Part shown: positions 31,885 through 41,489 of the stretch, one piece after another
Layout: each line of letters begins with the position of its first letter
Position numbering within the stretch: the stretch's first letter is position 1
Origin: Flavobacteriales bacterium
Lineage (GTDB): Bacteria > Bacteroidota > Bacteroidia > Flavobacteriales_F > PHOS-HE28
Direction: 5' to 3'
Assembly: GCA_044229215.1 (NCBI GenBank)
Contig: JBGATL010000014.1
Coordinates: forward strand, 1-43,149
Length of the DNA: 43,149 bases
Made by a program: the position numbers and the translations under genes
Notes under the pieces: generated by a model
Seen by the model: the letters and a program-made list of their open reading frames with translations, nothing else
The model's database searches: none
Told to the model about the DNA's origin: nothing

Positions 31885-32247
31885 GCGCGATAGGATTTGA
31901 TACCCGCACAACCGTTGCACCCCCGACCGAACTTGCGAGGGACCACTGCTGCAACCGCCTTGGCTGCGAAGGCACGGCCAAATATAGGTGGGCAAGCACG
32001 GCTTCATCCAGTCCTTTTAGAACGCAGGATCGTTCGCAAGTCACTTCCTGCGGGCACATGACCCGGCAAGGGCGCATTCCAGACCGGATGCAAGAACGCT
32101 GGACGGCACCCCATTCCACGCGTTGACCGCCGAGGTGCTCCATACTTCTTCACCATTGAGCCACTGAGGGCGTGGCGCAAGTTCCGTTCCTGCGGAATGC
32201 ATCGAGCAGCCACCTACGGTGGTTCGGGGTGCGGTGGTGGGCCGAAT

Positions 32248-32275
32248 GAAAGAACCCCAGGCAATTGCCCAGGGT
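32248..32275 (-). terminator. Probable native tRNA-Glu terminator, displaced by the island
   Basis: Minus strand accctgggc-aatt-gcctggggt-tctttc, 9 bp beyond the displaced tRNA 3' fragment. Confidence 0.65.
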
Positions 32276-32284
32276 CCAAGTAAG

Positions 32285-32300
32285 TGTAGCCCGTAGGGGA
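32285..32300. repeat. att core (displaced tRNA-Glu 3' fragment)
   Basis: tgtagcccgtagggga, identical to 38207-38222. Confidence 0.93.
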
Positions 32301-32416
32301 CTAATTCCAGCACATCCGCCTTTTTCCGCTTCAGCCGTCAAACCGCCAATTTCTCCAACAACGGCGGGGCATGTAGAGCGTATGAGAGAAAACGGGTATC
32401 GGAAGGAAGAAAGGAA

Positions 32417-32450
32417 AAAGGGTCAACAAAGGGTCAACAAAAGGGTCAAC
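32417..32450 (+). repeat. Three tandem AAAGGGTCAAC repeats (putative integrase arm-type sites, left)
   Basis: aaagggtcaac-aaagggtcaac-a-aaagggtcaac; the same motif recurs at the right end. Confidence 0.8.
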
Positions 32451-32454
32451 GATC

Positions 32455-32462
32455 TACATTTG
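32455..32462 (+). promoter_or_regulatory. -7 box (TACATTTG) of the integrase gene
   Basis: Consensus match 4 nt downstream of the arm repeats and about 30 nt upstream of the int ATG. Confidence 0.7.
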
Positions 32463-32491
32463 GGCATCCAGTATCGAAACCATGCGACCCG

Positions 32492-33859
32492 ATGGCCAAC
32501 TTTCATTTTTACCTGCGGGACTGGGATAGCCCCGACCAACCCACCGCCGTACACCTGCACATCCGTTGGGCGGGTCAACGCCTTGTGTACTCTACCGGCT
32601 GCAAGGTCATCCCCGGCCATTGGCAGACCGATAAGGAGAAAGTGACCGGCAAGGCACCCACGTGCCCCCATTGCACCCCGCCCCCCAGCGACCGGTTGGA
32701 CGCGGACGGTAAACCCTTCGCAGTTGAGGCCCACCGGGACATCAACGAACGCCTGAAGGTGTTGCAGGCCACCGCCGTGGGCATCTTGGACGCATTCGCA
32801 CGGGAAAAAGGGCGGGCACCTTCGCGCAACGAGCTACGCGATGCCCTCAACAAGGCGGACGGAAAGGCCACCGGGCAGGTGCCCACGGACCTGCTGACCT
32901 TCGCCCGGTCCTACATAGAGAGCGCACAAGGCCAGTTCAACAGCATACGCCTGAAACCCTATCACAAGGCCACCATTAGCCGGTACAAAGTGGCGTTGGA
33001 ACTGTTGAGGGCATACGCGGCCAAACGGTCCCGGCGGAAAACAGCCCCGCCCGTGGCCTTCGCCGAAGTGGATGCCGACTTTGTGGCCGGGTTCACCGCC
33101 TACCTGACCGCCCACGGCTACGCGGCCAATTCGGTGGTGAAGTACGGCAAGACCCTGCGGGAATTTCTCAAACGTGCCAAGGAACACAAGGAGCTGGGCA
33201 AGGAGGTGAATCCCGAAGTGTTCCAGCGCCACCTGACCTTGAAGGAGGAACCCAGCGAGCAAGTGTATTTGAACGCCGACGAACTGGCAGCCTTCTACTG
33301 GCTGGACCTTTCCGCACACCCGCGCCTTGAACGCGCCCGTGACCTGTTCATGGTGGGCGCATATACCGGCCTACGTTTCGGGGATCTTTCTCGCATCCAG
33401 CCGGAACACATCGAAGGGGACCGCCTGCGGATCCACACATCCAAGACCGGCAAGGATGTAACAATACCACTATCCCCGGTCATCCCTGCGATCATGGCCA
33501 AATACGGCGGGCGCATCCCTTCGGGCATATCGAACCAAAAACAGAACGACTACCTGAAAGAGGCCGCTGCCATGGTGCCGGAACTGCAAGTGAAAACCAT
33601 GCAGGGGCGTACCAAAGGGGGCATTCGGCGCGAAGTGGCACGGGCCAAGTGGGAGCGCATTACCACGCACACCGCCCGCCGCTCCTTCGCATCCAACATC
33701 TACCGCGAAGGCCGCACCCCCACCCGTACCATCATGGCCGTAACGGGGCACCAAACGGAGCAGGCGTTCATGCGTTACATCCGCCTCACGAACGAGGAAC
33801 ACGCGGACATCATGGCCAAGTCCAGCCTGTTCACCATGCCGGTATTGAAGGCGGTTTGA
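32492..33859 (+). CDS. Tyrosine integrase (Bacteroidetes arm-binding + SAM-like + catalytic domains)
   Basis: N-terminal YSTG.KV.P..W; catalytic R (TGLRFGD), K (SKTG), HTARR, TGH and Y (MRYI) are all present. Confidence 0.95.
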   Translation: MANFHFYLRDWDSPDQPTAVHLHIRWAGQRLVYSTGCKVIPGHWQTDKEKVTGKAPTCPHCTPPPSDRLDADGKPFAVEAHRDINERLKVLQATAVGILDAFAREKGRAPSRNELRDALNKADGKATGQVPTDLLTFARSYIESAQGQFNSIRLKPYHKATISRYKVALELLRAYAAKRSRRKTAPPVAFAEVDADFVAGFTAYLTAHGYAANSVVKYGKTLREFLKRAKEHKELGKEVNPEVFQRHLTLKEEPSEQVYLNADELAAFYWLDLSAHPRLERARDLFMVGAYTGLRFGDLSRIQPEHIEGDRLRIHTSKTGKDVTIPLSPVIPAIMAKYGGRIPSGISNQKQNDYLKEAAAMVPELQVKTMQGRTKGGIRREVARAKWERITTHTARRSFASNIYREGRTPTRTIMAVTGHQTEQAFMRYIRLTNEEHADIMAKSSLFTMPVLKAV

Positions 33860-33862
33860 GCG

Positions 33863-35149
33863 ATGGCGAAGAGAGCAGCGAAAAGAGCGGGTGAAGGGAT
33901 CCCGCCCATATACCTTCGGTACTACTACTATAACGACCCCAACGAGCCGTTGCCACCCCGTGGTTCGCTGACCCAAGGCCGCACCTTGCAAGATGCGTTC
34001 AACGAGCTGGCCAAGGAAGGTAAGGCGATATTGCACCGACTGTTCCGCCAGGGGGCCAGTGAGCAGTTGCGCGGCAAAACCGCACGGCATCTTGTGGTGG
34101 CGAAGAAGTGGGCCGGGTTCCTTGAAGAGCAGGACGGGGCCACGGTGGGCAGGCCCAAGGACTACGGTGCAACGCTGGACCGCACCCGCCGCACGTGGAT
34201 GAAGTACACCGTGCGCATCGGCACGGAGGAAGAGGCCGCGCATGAGCATGAGCGCAACGGATACCGCCCCACCGTGGAACGTCTGCTGGTGAACACGGCC
34301 AAATGGTACGCCACCAATTGCGAAAGGGAGGGCATGGAGCACAACCCCACGCCCGCGAACTTACAGCGGTTCCGGTCGGAGCAGTTCCTGTTGCCCGACC
34401 TGTCGGAGCAGGAGCTGGTGGAACACTACCAGGCGCACCCGCTACCGGCGTGGTATGCCATGGGTGTAGCTACCGACGCGGTGGAGGTCACGGGACCGGA
34501 TGCACCCGTCACCCCGCCGCTGGAATACATCCGACCCACGTGGAAGGACATGCGGGAGCGCATCCCACGCGATCAATTGTTCGATGGATGGCTGAAAGAG
34601 TATACTGCCGAGGTGGAGTTTGCCGCTGACCCGTTCGCGAACGATCCCGAGCTACCCGATACGTTCCGGTGGTTGGTGGAGGAACTGCGGAAGTTCAGGC
34701 CCGCCACATACGAAGCGAATGGGCTTCGCCAGGAGTTGGAGGGCATGGCCGATGGCGCGGCCTTCCTTTCAGCGATGGACCGGGAGCGGGAACGCCTTGT
34801 GCGGAAACTTGAAGACATTGCCCCATTGACTTCAACGGACGGCACCACCGCAACGCAAGGCACTACGAAACAACCCGTGGCACCGATCCAATGGAAAGGG
34901 AGCGTTCAGCAACTTGCGTGGCTGCTGCGGGAACTGGCCGAAAAGGGGTGGGTCGGGTACCCCGCCCAAAAGGGCAACACAACGAAGTGGAAGGCCGGGG
35001 ACATCAACGCATCCGCATTTGCACGGACCATGGCCCCCCACTTCAGGGACGTAAACCAAACAACTCTTGTCCAGCAACTGAAACCGGAAGGCGGCACGGT
35101 TCCGGCTGCGGACGTTGAAGGCTGGCAAATACCGAAACGCCCCGAATAG
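33863..35149 (+). CDS. Hypothetical protein, 428 aa, with a possible RteC-like C-terminal domain
   Basis: Starts 3 nt after int. The C-terminal IQWKGSVQQLAWLLRELAEKGWV resembles the W.G....L.EL...L segment of RteC-type regulators (weak, by eye). Confidence 0.7.
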   Translation: MAKRAAKRAGEGIPPIYLRYYYYNDPNEPLPPRGSLTQGRTLQDAFNELAKEGKAILHRLFRQGASEQLRGKTARHLVVAKKWAGFLEEQDGATVGRPKDYGATLDRTRRTWMKYTVRIGTEEEAAHEHERNGYRPTVERLLVNTAKWYATNCEREGMEHNPTPANLQRFRSEQFLLPDLSEQELVEHYQAHPLPAWYAMGVATDAVEVTGPDAPVTPPLEYIRPTWKDMRERIPRDQLFDGWLKEYTAEVEFAADPFANDPELPDTFRWLVEELRKFRPATYEANGLRQELEGMADGAAFLSAMDRERERLVRKLEDIAPLTSTDGTTATQGTTKQPVAPIQWKGSVQQLAWLLRELAEKGWVGYPAQKGNTTKWKAGDINASAFARTMAPHFRDVNQTTLVQQLKPEGGTVPAADVEGWQIPKRPE

Positions 35150-35158
35150 CGCGGGTTT

Positions 35159-35176
35159 CCCAAGTACGTACTTGGG
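35159..35176. promoter_or_regulatory. Perfect 18-bp palindrome, putative operator upstream of the excisionase operon
   Basis: cccaagtacgtacttggg is its own reverse complement and lies in the intergenic gap before xis. Confidence 0.6.
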
Positions 35177-35243
35177 TGGTATTTCGGACGGGGCACTTAT
35201 TGGATGCTTTTGCGGCACCGCTGAACAATTGGCGGCACCGCAA

Positions 35244-35534
35244 ATGGAAAACGTAGTCCTTAGTCCGATCCCGCTGCCCGACTTGGTGGGCGAGATCACC
35301 CGCGCCGTGCGCTCCGAACTGGATGCACGGGGAACCACCGCAACACCTGCGGAGGAACTTCTATCACGCCAACAAACCGCCGAACTGCTGGGCGTGACGC
35401 TGCCCACGCTGGCCAGTTACATGCGCCGGGGGCTGGTGCAAGGGTACCGCATTGGTGCGCGGGTCCGGTTCAAGAAGAACGAGGTGCTGGAAGGGTTGCA
35501 ACGCATCCGCACCGCAAAACAGGCCCGGCAATGA
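35244..35534 (+). CDS. HTH_17/MerR-like excisionase-family DNA-binding protein
   Basis: LLSRQQTAELLGVTLPTLASYMRRGLVQGYRIGARVRFKKNEV. Confidence 0.9.
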   Translation: MENVVLSPIPLPDLVGEITRAVRSELDARGTTATPAEELLSRQQTAELLGVTLPTLASYMRRGLVQGYRIGARVRFKKNEVLEGLQRIRTAKQARQ

Positions 35535-35983
35535 GCTATCCAGTATCCCCATCGTTCCGCGTCACCCACTACGCACTGGATTCGGTCACGGGCTGGTACG
35601 TGAAGGAACCGCAACGGATCCCGTTCGGCAAGGCACCGCAACGCCTGAAGGTGGAAGAAACCCAGGATGCGAAGATCCGGGCCAATGGTGCCCGCGAATT
35701 GATCCACGGCCCGCAAGTGAACGGCAAGTGCCCGTTCCTTACCGGGCTGGTGCCCTTGGAGGTGCCGGGCTGGCATGAAGGCAACGCATACGAATACCGC
35801 AAGGGCCAAGGCACCCGCAGCCTTGTACTGTTCCGGTTCACCGATCGCGATGCCGCGTTGACCCTGTTCTACTTCACCGGCTGGTACATGCAGGGCCGTG
35901 AACAGCGGCTGAAATTCGCGCGGGACTTCGCCCGCCATGTAGAGGCCCACGGCGTCCCTGAAAACAGCAACGCGGGCGTGTAG
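35531..35983 (+). CDS. Hypothetical protein, 150 aa
   Basis: ATGA-coupled to xis; beta-rich sequence; no family recognised. Confidence 0.75.
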   Translation: MSYPVSPSFRVTHYALDSVTGWYVKEPQRIPFGKAPQRLKVEETQDAKIRANGARELIHGPQVNGKCPFLTGLVPLEVPGWHEGNAYEYRKGQGTRSLVLFRFTDRDAALTLFYFTGWYMQGREQRLKFARDFARHVEAHGVPENSNAGV

Positions 35984-36023
35984 CCCGCGCTGCCTATCCA
36001 GTATCGCCCACACGGTTTCCCGA

Positions 36024-37298
36024 ATGATCGACGGAACGAAATTAAGGATCCACCCGGACGCGCAACGGCGGATGCGGGAACACGCCTTGCTGGTAGGCTG
36101 TTGGCGGTCCCGTGGCGAAGGGAAGGCCGGGGAGCAACGGCATACGGCCAAGTGGAACGGCTGGACCTTCACCGGCGATGCAACCCGCTGCTGGGAGCTA
36201 CGGGGATCGTTCCACAAGGCCCACCACGGCGGTACCAACTGGCAGGACTTCACGCTATCGCAATTCCGGCAAACCGTGGCCGCGCTATGCGATACCTTCG
36301 GGCTGCACGATGCGGGCCTAACCTTGGCCACGCTGGAAGTTGGGGCGAACATCGTCCCTCCGATCCCCACCTCTGCGGTGCTGCGGTCCATCGTGCTGCA
36401 CAAGAACGCCACGCCGGTGCCCATGCGTGAAGGCCACGGCATCCAGATCGTTCATGCAGGATACCGGTTCAAGCTCTACGATAAGGCGGCACAGTACCGG
36501 GAACACGTGAACGGCGAACTGTTGCGGTTTGAGCTGAAGGCAAACAAGATGCGCACCCTTGCCGGGTGCAATGTGCGCACCGTAGCGGACCTGCTGGACC
36601 CGGCGGCATGGACCCGGCTACGGGCCTTCCTGCTCGCCAAATTCGATGAACTGTTGATCGTGGAACCCGATATGCCCACCGGTGGACTTCAGCCCGCTCA
36701 ACGCGATCTTGTGGCCAACGCTGCGGTACCGTCCTACTGGCAGGAACTTCACCGGCGGACCCGATCGCGAAGGCGCACCGCATACACCACGCTGGTGCAA
36801 CGCATCCAACCCAACGGCCTGCAACCCACCCTGCGGACATTGATCGCGGCGAAGTTGTCCGAGGTCAACAGGTGGGACGTTTGCTCCAAGGGGACAACCG
36901 CAACCCCGAACCCTGAAAGTGGGACGTTTGCACCAAGGGGACAACACCCGGACAAGGCACCCCGAAAAGGCCAAAGTGGGACATTTGCACCACTTGCGAT
37001 AAGGGGTGCAAACGTCCCACCTACGGTTCCCGTTCCCGGTGAGGTTGCCCACCCTTCGGAGGTGCCTTCGGAGGGGGTGCGTAGGTGCCCGGTCTGCGGT
37101 CGGGACATCACCCATCAAGATCCCCGTTCAAGGGTTTGCAGTGAACGCCTCTACGGGAAGGCTGGGAAGAGGTGCCGGAACACGTTGAGTAACCGAACCC
37201 TGAGCCTTCGACGCATGGACCTGCGGAGCGTCTTGCTATTCGATCAACGGCCTTTCATTCGCCCCCCGCAGCACGGCAACACCGCACCACAGGTATGA
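36024..37298 (+). CDS. Putative rolling-circle replication initiator (Rep_trans / phage gene II-X-like) with a C-terminal Cys cluster
   Basis: MID start, GSFHK...N..DF, LEVGAN, FKLYDKAAQ (putative catalytic Tyr), LRFELK; C-terminal CPVC...VCS...RC. Confidence 0.75.
   Translation: MIDGTKLRIHPDAQRRMREHALLVGCWRSRGEGKAGEQRHTAKWNGWTFTGDATRCWELRGSFHKAHHGGTNWQDFTLSQFRQTVAALCDTFGLHDAGLTLATLEVGANIVPPIPTSAVLRSIVLHKNATPVPMREGHGIQIVHAGYRFKLYDKAAQYREHVNGELLRFELKANKMRTLAGCNVRTVADLLDPAAWTRLRAFLLAKFDELLIVEPDMPTGGLQPAQRDLVANAAVPSYWQELHRRTRSRRRTAYTTLVQRIQPNGLQPTLRTLIAAKLSEVNRWDVCSKGTTATPNPESGTFAPRGQHPDKAPRKGQSGTFAPLAIRGANVPPTVPVPGEVAHPSEVPSEGVRRCPVCGRDITHQDPRSRVCSERLYGKAGKRCRNTLSNRTLSLRRMDLRSVLLFDQRPFIRPPQHGNTAPQV
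36872..37020. repeat. Iteron-like repeats plus hairpin inside rep (candidate replication origin)
   Basis: GTGGGAC(G/A)TTTGC(A/T)CCA direct copies at 36872, 36919 and 36976, and an inverted copy at 37005-37020. Confidence 0.8.
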
Positions 37299-37648
37299 GC
37301 ATGAACAACGACCCGCACACTGGCCAGTTCACTAATGGCAACCCTGGTAGACCGAAGGGCACGAAGAACACCCGGACCCTGCAATGGGAAGAGCTGGGCA
37401 AAGAGATTACTGAGGCGAACGCCGGGCGGTTCAACGAACTGTTGGGCAGGTTGTGGGATAGTGCCGACCTATCCGATCAACTGCGGGCCGCTGAACTATT
37501 CCTGAAGGTGGCCGAGTTCTTCAAACCGAAGTTGCAGCGGATCCAAACGCCGGACCTGGAATGTGCCCCACGGCCTATCCATCGGATCATCATTTGCGAG
37601 AAGGACCACGGGGAGGATGGAACTTCAGGCGAAGACGGCGAACCGTAA
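37295..37648 (+). CDS. DUF5681/small-terminase-like protein, copy 1
   Basis: GQFTNGNPGRPKGTKN...AEFFKPKLQR; ATGA-coupled to rep. Confidence 0.75.
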   Translation: MSMNNDPHTGQFTNGNPGRPKGTKNTRTLQWEELGKEITEANAGRFNELLGRLWDSADLSDQLRAAELFLKVAEFFKPKLQRIQTPDLECAPRPIHRIIICEKDHGEDGTSGEDGEP

Positions 37649-37703
37649 TTATCGGCGGGTCTACGGTAGTGGATCACCAGAAAAGAACAGAGCAAGAACA
37701 GCA

Positions 37704-38042
37704 ATGGCAACGCAAACCGCCCGGCGCGGCACCTTCAGAAAAGGAGCATCCGGCAACCCCGCAGGCAGGCCCAAGGGCACCCCGAACAAGATCAACGAAC
37801 GCATCCGCGAAACCATCCACGCGGCCCTTGACGAAACGGCCCCGGACGTGGTGAAGTGGATCCGGCGGCTGGGCAAAGAAGATCCCAAGGGAGCGTTGCA
37901 GGTCTACGCCGCACTAGCAGAGTTCGCGCTACCGAAATTGAGCAGGCAGGAAGTGAAGGCCGAACTGGATGCCGAGGTGAAACACACGATAACGTTCATG
38001 CGGGGTGGCAATGTGATTACTCCCGGCCATGAGGCCCGCTAA
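37704..38042 (+). CDS. DUF5681/small-terminase-like protein, copy 2
   Basis: FRKGASGNPAGRPKGTPNK...AEFALPKLSR. Confidence 0.8.
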   Translation: MATQTARRGTFRKGASGNPAGRPKGTPNKINERIRETIHAALDETAPDVVKWIRRLGKEDPKGALQVYAALAEFALPKLSRQEVKAELDAEVKHTITFMRGGNVITPGHEAR

Positions 38043-38126
38043 GGTTGAGGGCAGCCCCATTCCGGCCCTGTTACCTGCCTTCCTGCTCCTTAGATCACAC
38101 ACCCTAAAAAGGGAGGAAGGGGATAA

Positions 38127-38148
38127 AAAGGGTCAACAAAGGGTCAAC
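38127..38148 (+). repeat. Two tandem AAAGGGTCAAC repeats (putative arm-type sites, right)
   Basis: aaagggtcaac-aaagggtcaac, same orientation as the left set. Confidence 0.8.
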
Positions 38149-38154
38149 ACCTTC

Positions 38155-38201
38155 AAAACGAAAACGCCGGAAACCCTTGCTATTGCTAAGGTTCCGGCGT
38201 T
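38155..38201 (-). terminator. Element-supplied terminator downstream of tRNA-Glu
   Basis: Stem aacgccggaa..cctt / aaggttccggcgtt, followed by T-rich ttcgtttt on the minus strand. Confidence 0.7.
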
Positions 38202-38206
38202 CCGGT

Positions 38207-38222
38207 TGTAGCCCGTAGGGGA
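38207..38222. repeat. att core overlapping the tRNA-Glu 3' end
   Basis: tgtagcccgtagggga, identical to 32285-32300. Confidence 0.93.
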
Positions 38223-38280
38223 ATCGAACCCCTGTTTCATCCGTGAAAGGGACGCGTCCTAACCCCTAGACGAACGGGCC
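38209..38280 (-). tRNA. tRNA-Glu (UUC)
   Basis: ggcccgttcgtctaggggttaggacgcgtccctTTCacggatgaaacaggggttcgattcccctacgggcta folds as a cloverleaf with a TTC anticodon and TTCGA T-loop; CCA not encoded. Confidence 0.97.
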
Positions 38281-40510: not shown

Positions 40511-40607
40511 CCCCGTTCCGTGGTATTATTTTTGTGTGTGAGAAGTGGCCCCTAAAGTACATCACCCGTTGCGGCACCTTGGTGCCGTGGCCAACGCATC
40601 GATCGCC

Positions 40608-41489
40608 ATGAAGACCCTCCATCGGATCCTGCTCCTTTCGGCCCCGGCCCTGTTGCTCGTGTCCTGCGCCTCCATGGGTCCGGGCACCAGTGTGTCCGAC
40701 GATGTGTATTACATGCCTTCCCAAGCACCGGTCCTGGCCTCCACGGCCAAGTCGATCCCCTTGGAAGAGCCCGCGCCACCAGCCCCCGTGCAGGAGGACT
40801 ATTATGACCAGCGCACCTCCAGAGAGGTGGGCATGGACCATGACCGGTACGACAACTACTATGATATGGCCTACAACGACCCGTACTATTACAACTACGG
40901 GCGTTTCGGCTTCAATGCTGCGCCCATGGGTTGGCAGACCGGCTGGAATGGACCCGGATGGGGCGGGGGCATGAGCATGGGCTTCGGGTACGGTTACGGT
41001 TGGGGCAATGGCGTGACCTGGGGTTTCGGCTCCGGTATTTATTCCGGTTGGTACCGACCCAGTTGGCGATACGACCCCTTCTACTGGAATTCACCTTGGG
41101 GCTGGGGCAGCCCGTGGGCGTACAACGGCTGGGGTTATGGGGCCGGCTATGGCTATGGCAACTACCACAGCCCCTGGGGTAACTGTTACGGCTGTTATGC
41201 CCCGGTGATCATCGGCGACGGAGTGGCGAACACCACCGTGGTGCGTCCGCGCCAACCGATCGGTGGCCGCAATGGTAGTGGGACCACCGGAGGCGTTTCG
41301 CATCGTGGCGCCGCCCGCGGCAGGGAGGGGAACCCCACCCACACACGCGAACATCGCATGCCGGAACCCTCGCGGAACGTGGAACGCAGCGCACCAAGCC
41401 GCGGTACGGACTTCGGTGGCGGCGGCGGTAGCCGCACCAGTCCTTCCCGCGATGGTGGCGGAGGCCGCACCAGTCCGGGTCGGCGTTGA
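40608..41489 (+). CDS. Gly/Tyr/Trp-rich hypothetical lipoprotein
   Basis: Lipobox LVSC, DDVYY, aromatic/Gly low-complexity core and an Arg/Gly/Ser tail. Confidence 0.8.
   Translation: MKTLHRILLLSAPALLLVSCASMGPGTSVSDDVYYMPSQAPVLASTAKSIPLEEPAPPAPVQEDYYDQRTSREVGMDHDRYDNYYDMAYNDPYYYNYGRFGFNAAPMGWQTGWNGPGWGGGMSMGFGYGYGWGNGVTWGFGSGIYSGWYRPSWRYDPFYWNSPWGWGSPWAYNGWGYGAGYGYGNYHSPWGNCYGCYAPVIIGDGVANTTVVRPRQPIGGRNGSGTTGGVSHRGAARGREGNPTHTREHRMPEPSRNVERSAPSRGTDFGGGGGSRTSPSRDGGGGRTSPGRR

Follow-up and report, generated by a model that had tools for sequence, protein, structure and literature searches.

Phage-inducible chromosomal islands (PICIs) span about 10-15 kb and carry divergent regulatory genes, a primase-helicase Rep and often genes for capsid size. 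In these islands and in the Staphylococcus aureus pathogenicity islands (SaPIs), a small terminase (TerS) encoded by the satellite redirects the large terminase (TerL) of the helper phage to satellite DNA, as related in the passages on satellite packaging of PMC9618062. The virion-encapsidated integrative mobile elements (VEIMEs) were defined in the same source (PMC9618062, Eppley et al. 2022) through their recovery in concatemer form from virus particles of the sea; according to its sections on element modules and hosts, some modules contain small-terminase homologues closest to those of co-occurring phages, and Flavobacteria are one of several host groups in which VEIMEs are integrated. PICMI115, which belongs to the PICMIs (phage-inducible chromosomal minimalist islands), is 6.1 kb long, undergoes rolling-circle replication and is packaged in concatemers of 8 copies, as stated in the part of PMC10803314 that concerns this element. 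Here a comparable island was found in the window, meaning the whole stretch of 43,149 nt that was analysed (Flavobacteriales bacterium, assembly GCA_044229215.1, contig JBGATL010000014.1, positions 1 to 43,149, forward strand). It is an integrative element of 5.9 kb (32285-38222) at a tRNA-Glu gene, with every gene on the + strand, and it ends in two adjacent genes of the DUF5681 type, here called dufA and dufB, for proteins A and B. With a probability of roughly one half, the island is a minimal phage satellite like the VEIMEs and PICMIs, and its two TerS-like modules are interchangeable.

The island resembles VEIMEs in its small size, tyrosine integrase, excisionase/AlpA-type regulator, replication genes and lack of virion genes, as these are set out in the gene-content sections of PMC9618062. 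It differs from them in that VEIMEs were recovered from virus particles, whereas the island is known from sequence, in activated sludge and wastewater. The replication genes reported for VEIMEs, in a paper that was not searched for rolling-circle initiators, are those of DNA primase/helicases and, in one module, of DNA polymerase, whereas the island has an initiator of the Rep_trans fold; furthermore, its TerS-like genes are of the DUF5681 type. With PICMIs, as laid out in the passages of PMC10803314 on their gene content, the island shares a length of about 6 kb, few genes, an integrase, an AlpA-like regulator and one replication gene, and the absence of a capsid-remodelling gene. Rolling-circle-like replication and concatemer packaging were shown for PICMI115 in that source and are only proposed for the island. 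The Vibrionaceae PICMIs lie next to fis, use a primase and lack terS and any other packaging-redirection gene (PMC10803314), whereas the island sits in tRNA-Glu, has a Rep_trans-fold initiator and two TerS-like genes, and falls outside the strict definition of a PICMI. Likeness to SaPIs and PICIs extends to the integrase, the regulator and a rep gene whose iteron origin lies beside or within it; the differences are a length of 5.9 kb, the arrangement on one strand, and two TerS-like proteins that match no curated TerS family.

The reading of the two proteins as TerS-like derives from the place that their relatives occupy in phages. Protein B is matched by 71 records of the phage collection, the best being the complete 34.7-kb genome MW202462 (E 4e-9), in which a homologue of 110 aa overlaps the start of the terminase gene and opens a terminase (terL)-portal-scaffold-capsid block; no second small terminase is present in the annotation of that genome. 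Two sets of viral loci were then tabulated. For scanning loci, alignment A2 proved too broad and diverse, and A3 and A4 replaced it. The first set comprised 84 loci, and a downstream open reading frame (ORF) was counted when it lay on the same strand and reached at least 150 aa. Such an ORF followed directly in 83 of the 84, mostly with an overlap of 3-31 nt, and 71 of these 83 were confirmed as TerL: Pfam large-terminase domains (E<=1e-5) were present in 46, and among the 37 others, 28 were scanned against PHROGs, where 25 matched phrog_2, terminase large subunit. Five near-duplicates were left unscanned, and the seven remaining ORFs encode two methyltransferases, two HNH nucleases, two endonucleases VII and one protein with no match. 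The second set started from 50 rows, 7 from the alignment of A and 43 from the alignment of close B relatives, and 37 were tabulated after removal of seven short or partial matches, four members of a 31%-identity group represented by two other loci, one locus on a contig that already supplied another, and one locus already examined. Of the 37, 29 were followed by such an ORF at a distance of no more than 1 kb, and 25 of these ORFs were TerL; among the six relatives of dufA that had such an ORF, it was TerL in five and an exonuclease in the sixth. Among cellular genomes, a TerL-sized ORF abutted the DUF5681 gene at only four loci, none of them from Bacteroidota (two labelled Proteobacteria, one Paracoccus and one Sphingomonas); the DUF5681 protein of one of these four is identical to that of a viral locus whose downstream ORF is TerL. 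Judged by gene order, the DUF5681-type family occupies the small-terminase slot in tailed phages.

Both genes of the island were verified individually. The dufB ORF was listed as 37563..38042 (+, GTG), and an internal ATG at 37704 gives the 112-aa protein, a start that agrees with the N-termini of homologues in the alignment. The dufA ORF opens with ATG and overlaps the stop of the upstream 424-aa gene (ATGA). Common to A and B are an N-terminal motif, GNP.GRPKG..N, and a C-terminal one, AEF..PKL.R, which take the forms QFTNGNPGRPKGTKN and VAEFFKPKLQR in protein A and TFRKGASGNPAGRPKGTPN and LAEFALPKLSR in protein B. Protein B matches Pfam DUF5681 (PF18932) over residues 8-41 with 38.4 bits (E 1.9e-09), above the cut-off of 27.5, and the dufB site reached 37.6 bits against the same family in the genome search. 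Protein A scores 16.2 bits (E 0.016), below the 27.5-bit gathering cut-off, and a precomputed PF18932 match is present in 3 of its 73 relatives. Despite the sub-cut-off Pfam score, protein A is by sequence comparison a homologue of B, based on the common motifs and on a BLASTP alignment with 23 of 70 residues identical (33%, 26.2 bits, E 3e-5). At E<=1e-3, 203 homologues were collected for B and 73 for A, and the latter form a clade of their own with strongly conserved motifs. Pairwise ratios of nonsynonymous to synonymous substitution (dN/dS) were 0.13-0.19 for B (7 orthologues) and 0.20-0.25 for A (4 orthologues), by which measure dufA and dufB are real genes under purifying selection. A sequence-only reading of this DNA had taken both proteins for DUF5681-type products with common terminal motifs and had expected their relatives next to phage terL; the homology and the viral gene order bear out both points, with A below and B above the Pfam threshold. 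The same reading called GRPKG AT-hook-like, and for this part of the claim there is a hint only, a weak profile match of the GRPKG stretch to the HMG-I/Y AT-hook peptide 2ezd (E 0.11).

A small terminase is in general built of about 100 aa, with an oligomerising helical part and a C-terminal beta element. The AF2 model of protein B (pLDDT 74) shows a helical hairpin formed by residues 29-59 and 61-75, a short beta hairpin and a disordered basic N-terminus; residues 1-28, the region that carries GRPKG, are without regular structure and of low confidence. A profile search of the PDB with 121 homologues of B gave nothing significant, the best matches (E 0.03) being unrelated, and a Foldseek comparison of the model with the PDB gave no match at E<=0.001 and no solved TerS. 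In the wide VIA-align search only generic helical hairpins were returned, at Z<=5.0, and in BFVD only DUF5681 or uncharacterised phage proteins. When four copies of B(20-112) were modelled together, the median ipSAE was 0.51 (runs 0.15, 0.51 and 0.52) against 0.00 for the best of three controls, with contacts agreeing to at least 71%, a partner pLDDT of at least 56 and the interface in helices 30-79. Of 30 proteins with structures solved as pairs, 20 attained the mark; of 23 solved as single chains, 1 did. The modelling supports a predicted self-association of protein B through the helical hairpin.

The gene upstream of dufA encodes a 424-aa protein that matched nothing in Pfam, PHROG or NCBIfam and for which the PDB profile search gave 0 matches. 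At E<=1e-3 it has 1882 homologue clusters, and a replication-initiator Pfam family, Rep_trans (PF02486) included, was found in 0 of 41 homologues scanned; three of them have an unrelated low-scoring match. Its AF2 model, built on a 143-sequence alignment, has a pLDDT of 87.5, rising to about 98 across residues 1-280, and is laid out as a fold domain, a disordered linker (288-347) and a C-terminal zinc-ribbon-like helix region. By Foldseek the model matched RepDE (4cwe_A, E 3.6e-07, probability 1.00) and also RepSTK1 (4cij) in the PDB. VIA-align gave Z 11.7 for 4cwe_A, with 231 residues aligned at a root-mean-square deviation of 4.0, and the next unrelated fold (TBP) reached Z 6.0; for the Rep_trans initiators as a group, that is RepD/RepDE of the pT181 family and RepSTK1 (4cwe, 4cwc and 4cij), the match covers Rep residues 1-285 with Z 11.2-11.7 and 218-231 residues aligned. 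Likeness to these initiators includes an invariant tyrosine: E105, K150 and Y152 are invariant in the 143 homologues, and Y152 is a conserved candidate for the active-site tyrosine of the Rep_trans fold.

The probable origin lies within the rep gene, as it does in pT181. It consists of iterons, three direct copies of a 16-27-nt repeat and one inverted copy, with start-to-start spacings of 47 and 57 nt (direct search families D1/D7, inverted pairs I14/I18), and it coincides with the rep DNA that encodes the disordered linker. The 47/57-nt spacing is kept in three sister islands (L012, L182 and L184), where the sequence of the repeat differs. The island protein also differs from the known initiators, with 9-13% identity, no Pfam Rep_trans match, and the extra linker and zinc-ribbon-like region, and its gene is chromosomally integrated along with an integrase. 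Based on the fold model and the iterons, the 424-aa protein is read as a probable Rep_trans-fold rolling-circle initiator with its origin inside its own gene.

The family of related islands was examined in 40 genome loci, the relatives being labelled Flavobacteriales. Four islands (L010-L013) have the same backbone as the island in the window, with integrases 78-90%, Rep proteins 82-90% and dufB products 87-94% identical, and are without dufA; in three others (L014-L016) a dufB about 90% identical stands behind other backbones. At all seven of these close dufB loci a minus-strand tRNA gene (Glu, Asp, Val or Thr) lies 109-331 nt past dufB. In the A-type islands (L179-L184) the genes are likewise arranged as int-(428-like)-xis-(150)-rep-dufA-tRNA. 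In one of them, L180 (9505-10186), from a related genome, dufA precedes a DUF5681 gene of a third, distant kind (E 5e-8, 29% identity to B), so that the stacking of two DUF5681 genes recurs with another partner. Among 131 other genomes of the order, 130 of them from one genus, the A type was present in 6, the B type in 3 and both in 0. In the DNA alignment, the window tracks the B-only islands through most of rep, switches near the last rep codons to the A type (as in L182) through dufA and about 25 nt beyond, and past this cassette returns to the B-type spacer and dufB. Because of these boundaries, the A+B pair is attributed to recombination between island types, by which dufA was inserted as a cassette.

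The tree is in agreement. It places A with two phage genes, within a set of phage sequences, at a support of 100 in the Shimodaira-Hasegawa-like approximate likelihood ratio test (SH-aLRT), and B forms a separate clade (97). On a short alignment, the approximately unbiased (AU) test did not reject A and B as one clade (p 0.32). Local tandem duplication, which the sequence-only reading had implied by speaking of tandem diverged paralogues, was rejected as the origin on the cassette boundaries, although the AU test leaves the monophyly of A and B open; the separate tree groups and the A-only and B-only sister islands also speak against it. Nor are the two genes the only cargo, as that reading had it, since ORFs of 428 and 150 aa without a family are likewise present in the island.

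Several further features of the sister islands were recorded. One Flavobacteriales metagenome-assembled genome (MAG; G071) carries three dufB-type islands, L011, L012 and L014 (C21, C57 and C101), at tRNA-Glu, tRNA-Asp and tRNA-Val. Two of the islands with the shared backbone, L010 and L013 (dufB 89-94%, integrase about 90%, Rep 82-85%), are filed under MAGs labelled 'Proteobacteria bacterium', a label that probably results from mis-binning of a short, island-sized contig. In six pairs of A-type and B-type protein clusters the longest contigs are of equal length, and these contigs seem to hold both types. For 16 of the 73 dufA-type protein clusters the longest contig measures 4.4-7.0 kb, or about one island, perhaps because an element that is excised or present in several copies was assembled on its own.

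In near-identical form (87-99% of sampled words) the island was present in 14 DNA runs, which came from activated sludge, from wastewater and, in one case, from a bioreactor; 9 of these runs, from at least 7 studies, were not flagged as a possible source of the window. In run X7 one contig leads from 38219 back to 32286, the joint that an excised circle, a rolling-circle multimer or two tandem islands would give. The joint of an empty site (32285 to 38207) was not seen in the contigs of four runs. A separate X7 contig, of depth 31.3, joins 32087 to 37597 and 37655 to 38207, which points to a related strain whose content at this tRNA-Glu site is different or absent.

The remaining parts of the island agree with an intact integrative element (Table 1). 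The 16-bp att core occurs in exactly two copies in the window, at the two island ends, and two matches were obtained in 0 of 100 shuffles. An 11-bp repeat has five matches in the window, all at the island ends (three left, two right), a number reached by 0 of 100 shuffles. In the sister islands the sequence of this repeat varies with the type of integrase and not with the type of DUF5681 gene; the repeats are read as integrase arm sites for this reason, and their interpretation as a packaging (pac) or TerS-binding site was rejected on the same ground. The integrase matches Pfam Phage_integrase (4.2e-14) and Phage_int_SAM_5 (2.8e-11) and PHROG phrog_1, integrase (1.9e-28). The helix-turn-helix protein matches Pfam HTH_17 (1.9e-07, 31.7 bits against a cut-off of 27) and phrog_66, 'excisionase and transcriptional regulator' (1.1e-06), while NCBIfam TIGR01764, 'excise', stays under its cut-off (25.7 against 28.8 bits). 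Neither the 428-aa nor the 150-aa ORF matched a family in Pfam, PHROG or NCBIfam. The former is the most variable part of the backbone, with only partial matches of 24-44% in sister islands, and could be the real accessory or cargo gene of the island; by its features in the ESM Atlas it is connected with Bacteroidota clusters of DUF6043 (163-166 features shared, score 0.92), which serves as a lead only. The latter is 93-95% identical in L011-L013 and 79% in L182. In the Pfam and PHROG scans, none of the seven island ORFs matched a family of structural (capsid, portal or tail) or lysis proteins. The GC content of the island is 60.5% against 61.3% in the flanks, and a scan for promoters and terminators gave a result at chance level. 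A prophage remnant was rejected as an explanation, the backbone being intact and conserved in several species and the genes being under purifying selection. Outside the island, at 40545-41489 (+), the window holds a 314-aa ORF very rich in Gly/Tyr/Trp repeats (GWGYG-like) after a signal-like N-terminus.

Table 1. Features of the island, in window coordinates.
Feature	Position	Strand	Basis
Left att core, 16-bp direct repeat of the tRNA-Glu 3' end	32285..32300		repeat search
Three direct 11-bp repeats of the AAGGGTCAACA type, probable integrase arm-type sites	32418..32451	+	repeat search
Tyrosine integrase, 455 aa	32492..33859	+	Pfam, PHROG
428-aa ORF, no family, variable part of the backbone	33863..35149	+	Pfam/PHROG/NCBIfam scans
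Xis/AlpA-like helix-turn-helix protein, 139-aa ORF, helix-turn-helix at residues 82-128	35115..35534	+	Pfam, PHROG
150-aa ORF, no family, conserved in sister islands	35531..35983	+	island comparison
Replication initiator, predicted Rep_trans fold, 424 aa	36024..37298	+	AF2 model, fold search
Iterons inside rep, probable origin	36872..37020		repeat search
dufA, DUF5681-like, TerS-like protein A, 117 aa	37295..37648	+	ORF list, BLASTP
dufB, DUF5681 protein B, TerS-like, 112 aa	37704..38042	+	Pfam PF18932
Two more 11-bp arm-type repeats	38128..38149	+	repeat search
tRNA-Glu(UUC), 3' end holds the right att core (38207-38222)	38208..38280	-	ARAGORN

A mechanism can be proposed for the island as a satellite. 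Infection by a helper phage would lead to excision of the island, and the excised DNA would be replicated by rolling circle into multimers. The TerS-like proteins A and B would mark this DNA for the large terminase of the helper, and the concatemers would be packaged by the headful mode into capsids of the helper, in the way that was shown for PICMI and has been proposed for VEIMEs. The dufA gene was recombined in as a cassette from an A-type island, and the presence of both genes together may allow the use of two kinds of helper terminase, or may be a mere trace of recent recombination. Besides two helper terminases, the sequence-only reading had suggested that A and B may form a hetero-oligomer, or that one may redirect packaging and the other act as a dominant-negative inhibitor. 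A wider formulation is put forward only tentatively: DUF5681 may be a class of phage small terminases, so far unrecognised, in which DNA is read by an AT-hook-like GRPKG arm and not by a helix-turn-helix; rolling-circle satellites of about 6 kb in Flavobacteriales would swap these genes as cassettes, two being stacked here to hijack the packaging motors of two helpers. The case for the satellite is coherent, but it is built on synteny and models.

Several observations weigh against the satellite. Proteins A and B match no curated TerS family (Pfam and PHROGs at E<=0.1, NCBIfam at E<=0.01), every PHROG match of either is of 'unknown function', and the AF2 model of B has no N-terminal helix-turn-helix. 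No Terminase_6N or Terminase_3 match was found in the island's own assembly, which is 87.7% complete, and no terL-linked DUF5681 gene in the 131 genomes, 130 of them from one genus. In IMG/VR no close relative of A or B was found, the best identities being 44% and 45%, and the viral relatives nearest to A have a GC content of 36-39% against the 60.5% of the island. The X7 joint is a single contig of a variant island at 90% likeness, and tandem islands give the same joint. Contigs of the RNA library X15 cover 37522-38018 (dufB and the 3' end of dufA) without differences, where DNA carry-over is possible. Finally, proteins of the Rep_trans fold also serve as relaxases of mobilisable elements, and relatives of theirs do so in integrative and conjugative elements and integrative mobilisable elements of Firmicutes. 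Within the genus, the strongest DUF5681 match (L195, G097:C102, 8703-9125, 63 bits, full-length) has no terL nearby; it follows a replication-initiation-O-like gene and a 652-aa ORF without an assigned function and apparently sits in another kind of element.

The absence of a curated TerS match, the PHROG matches of 'unknown function' and the missing helix-turn-helix also speak for the alternative that survives best, in which DUF5681 is another small DNA-binding protein encoded upstream of terL, such as a late-operon regulator or a nucleoid-like AT-hook protein, and the island is a small integrative rolling-circle replicon with one or two regulators. It is considered unlikely, if still worth weighing. 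Distance from terL agrees with it in phiEa21-4, where a rightward block opens with the homologue, about 4.9 kb from terL with a tRNA array and three small genes between, and so do three viral loci where the ORF that follows is not TerL but a member of the unknown family phrog_19255. A member of the family was moreover detected in the virion proteome of Salmonella phage STGO-35-1, in the protein listing of PMC8954984, and this listing was the sole paper found in a literature search on 'DUF5681'. Such a role is at odds with the start/stop overlap with terL in most of more than 100 viral loci and across several TerL families, and MW202462 has no other annotated TerS candidate. The length of about 100 aa, the predicted self-association of the hairpin and the C-terminal beta element also fit the TerS build described above.

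The fold of Rep opens a second alternative, distinctly unlikely in our judgement, that the island is an integrative mobilisable element with a Rep_trans-fold relaxase (MOB_T-like) and conjugation functions supplied in trans; the DUF5681 proteins would then be accessory DNA-binding proteins, of the relaxosome or regulatory, with no packaging role. Small size, integration at a tRNA gene and the absence of virion genes would suit such an element, as would the lack of a helper phage or terL in the assembly and the genus survey and of a close copy in viral contigs. However, both DUF5681 proteins have their relatives among phage genes in the TerS slot, the Pfam and PHROG scans of the island ORFs revealed neither a coupling protein nor any other gene for conjugation, and the iterons inside rep resemble a replication origin. 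It also counts against mobilisation that we know of no MOB_T-type relaxases in Bacteroidota, a point on which no literature search was made. Very improbable is a chiefly anti-phage island, whose TerS-like decoys would poison the terminase of an invading phage in a dominant-negative manner, transfer being secondary or nil: the same homology and synteny would support it, satellite small terminases are listed among interference genes in the relevant passage of PMC9618062, and two different modules would widen the range of blocked phages, but the complete excision and replication apparatus is conserved, which a pure defence gene would not need, and the A-only and B-only islands imply that each protein works alone.

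In comparison with the published satellites, the island as a candidate satellite differs in its Rep_trans-fold initiator, its packaging genes of the DUF5681 type, the exchange of these genes in the form of cassettes and the occurrence of two of them together. If the satellite reading is true, the widespread DUF5681 family would acquire a small-terminase or packaging-specificity function, and a family of elements from Bacteroidota of activated sludge would join the minimal satellites known from marine Vibrionaceae and from plankton. This satellite family would bring with it a new replication module, of the Rep_trans fold, and a packaging cassette that can be exchanged. Islands that share one backbone and carry A only, B only or both would then amount to a natural experiment on the change or widening of helper range.

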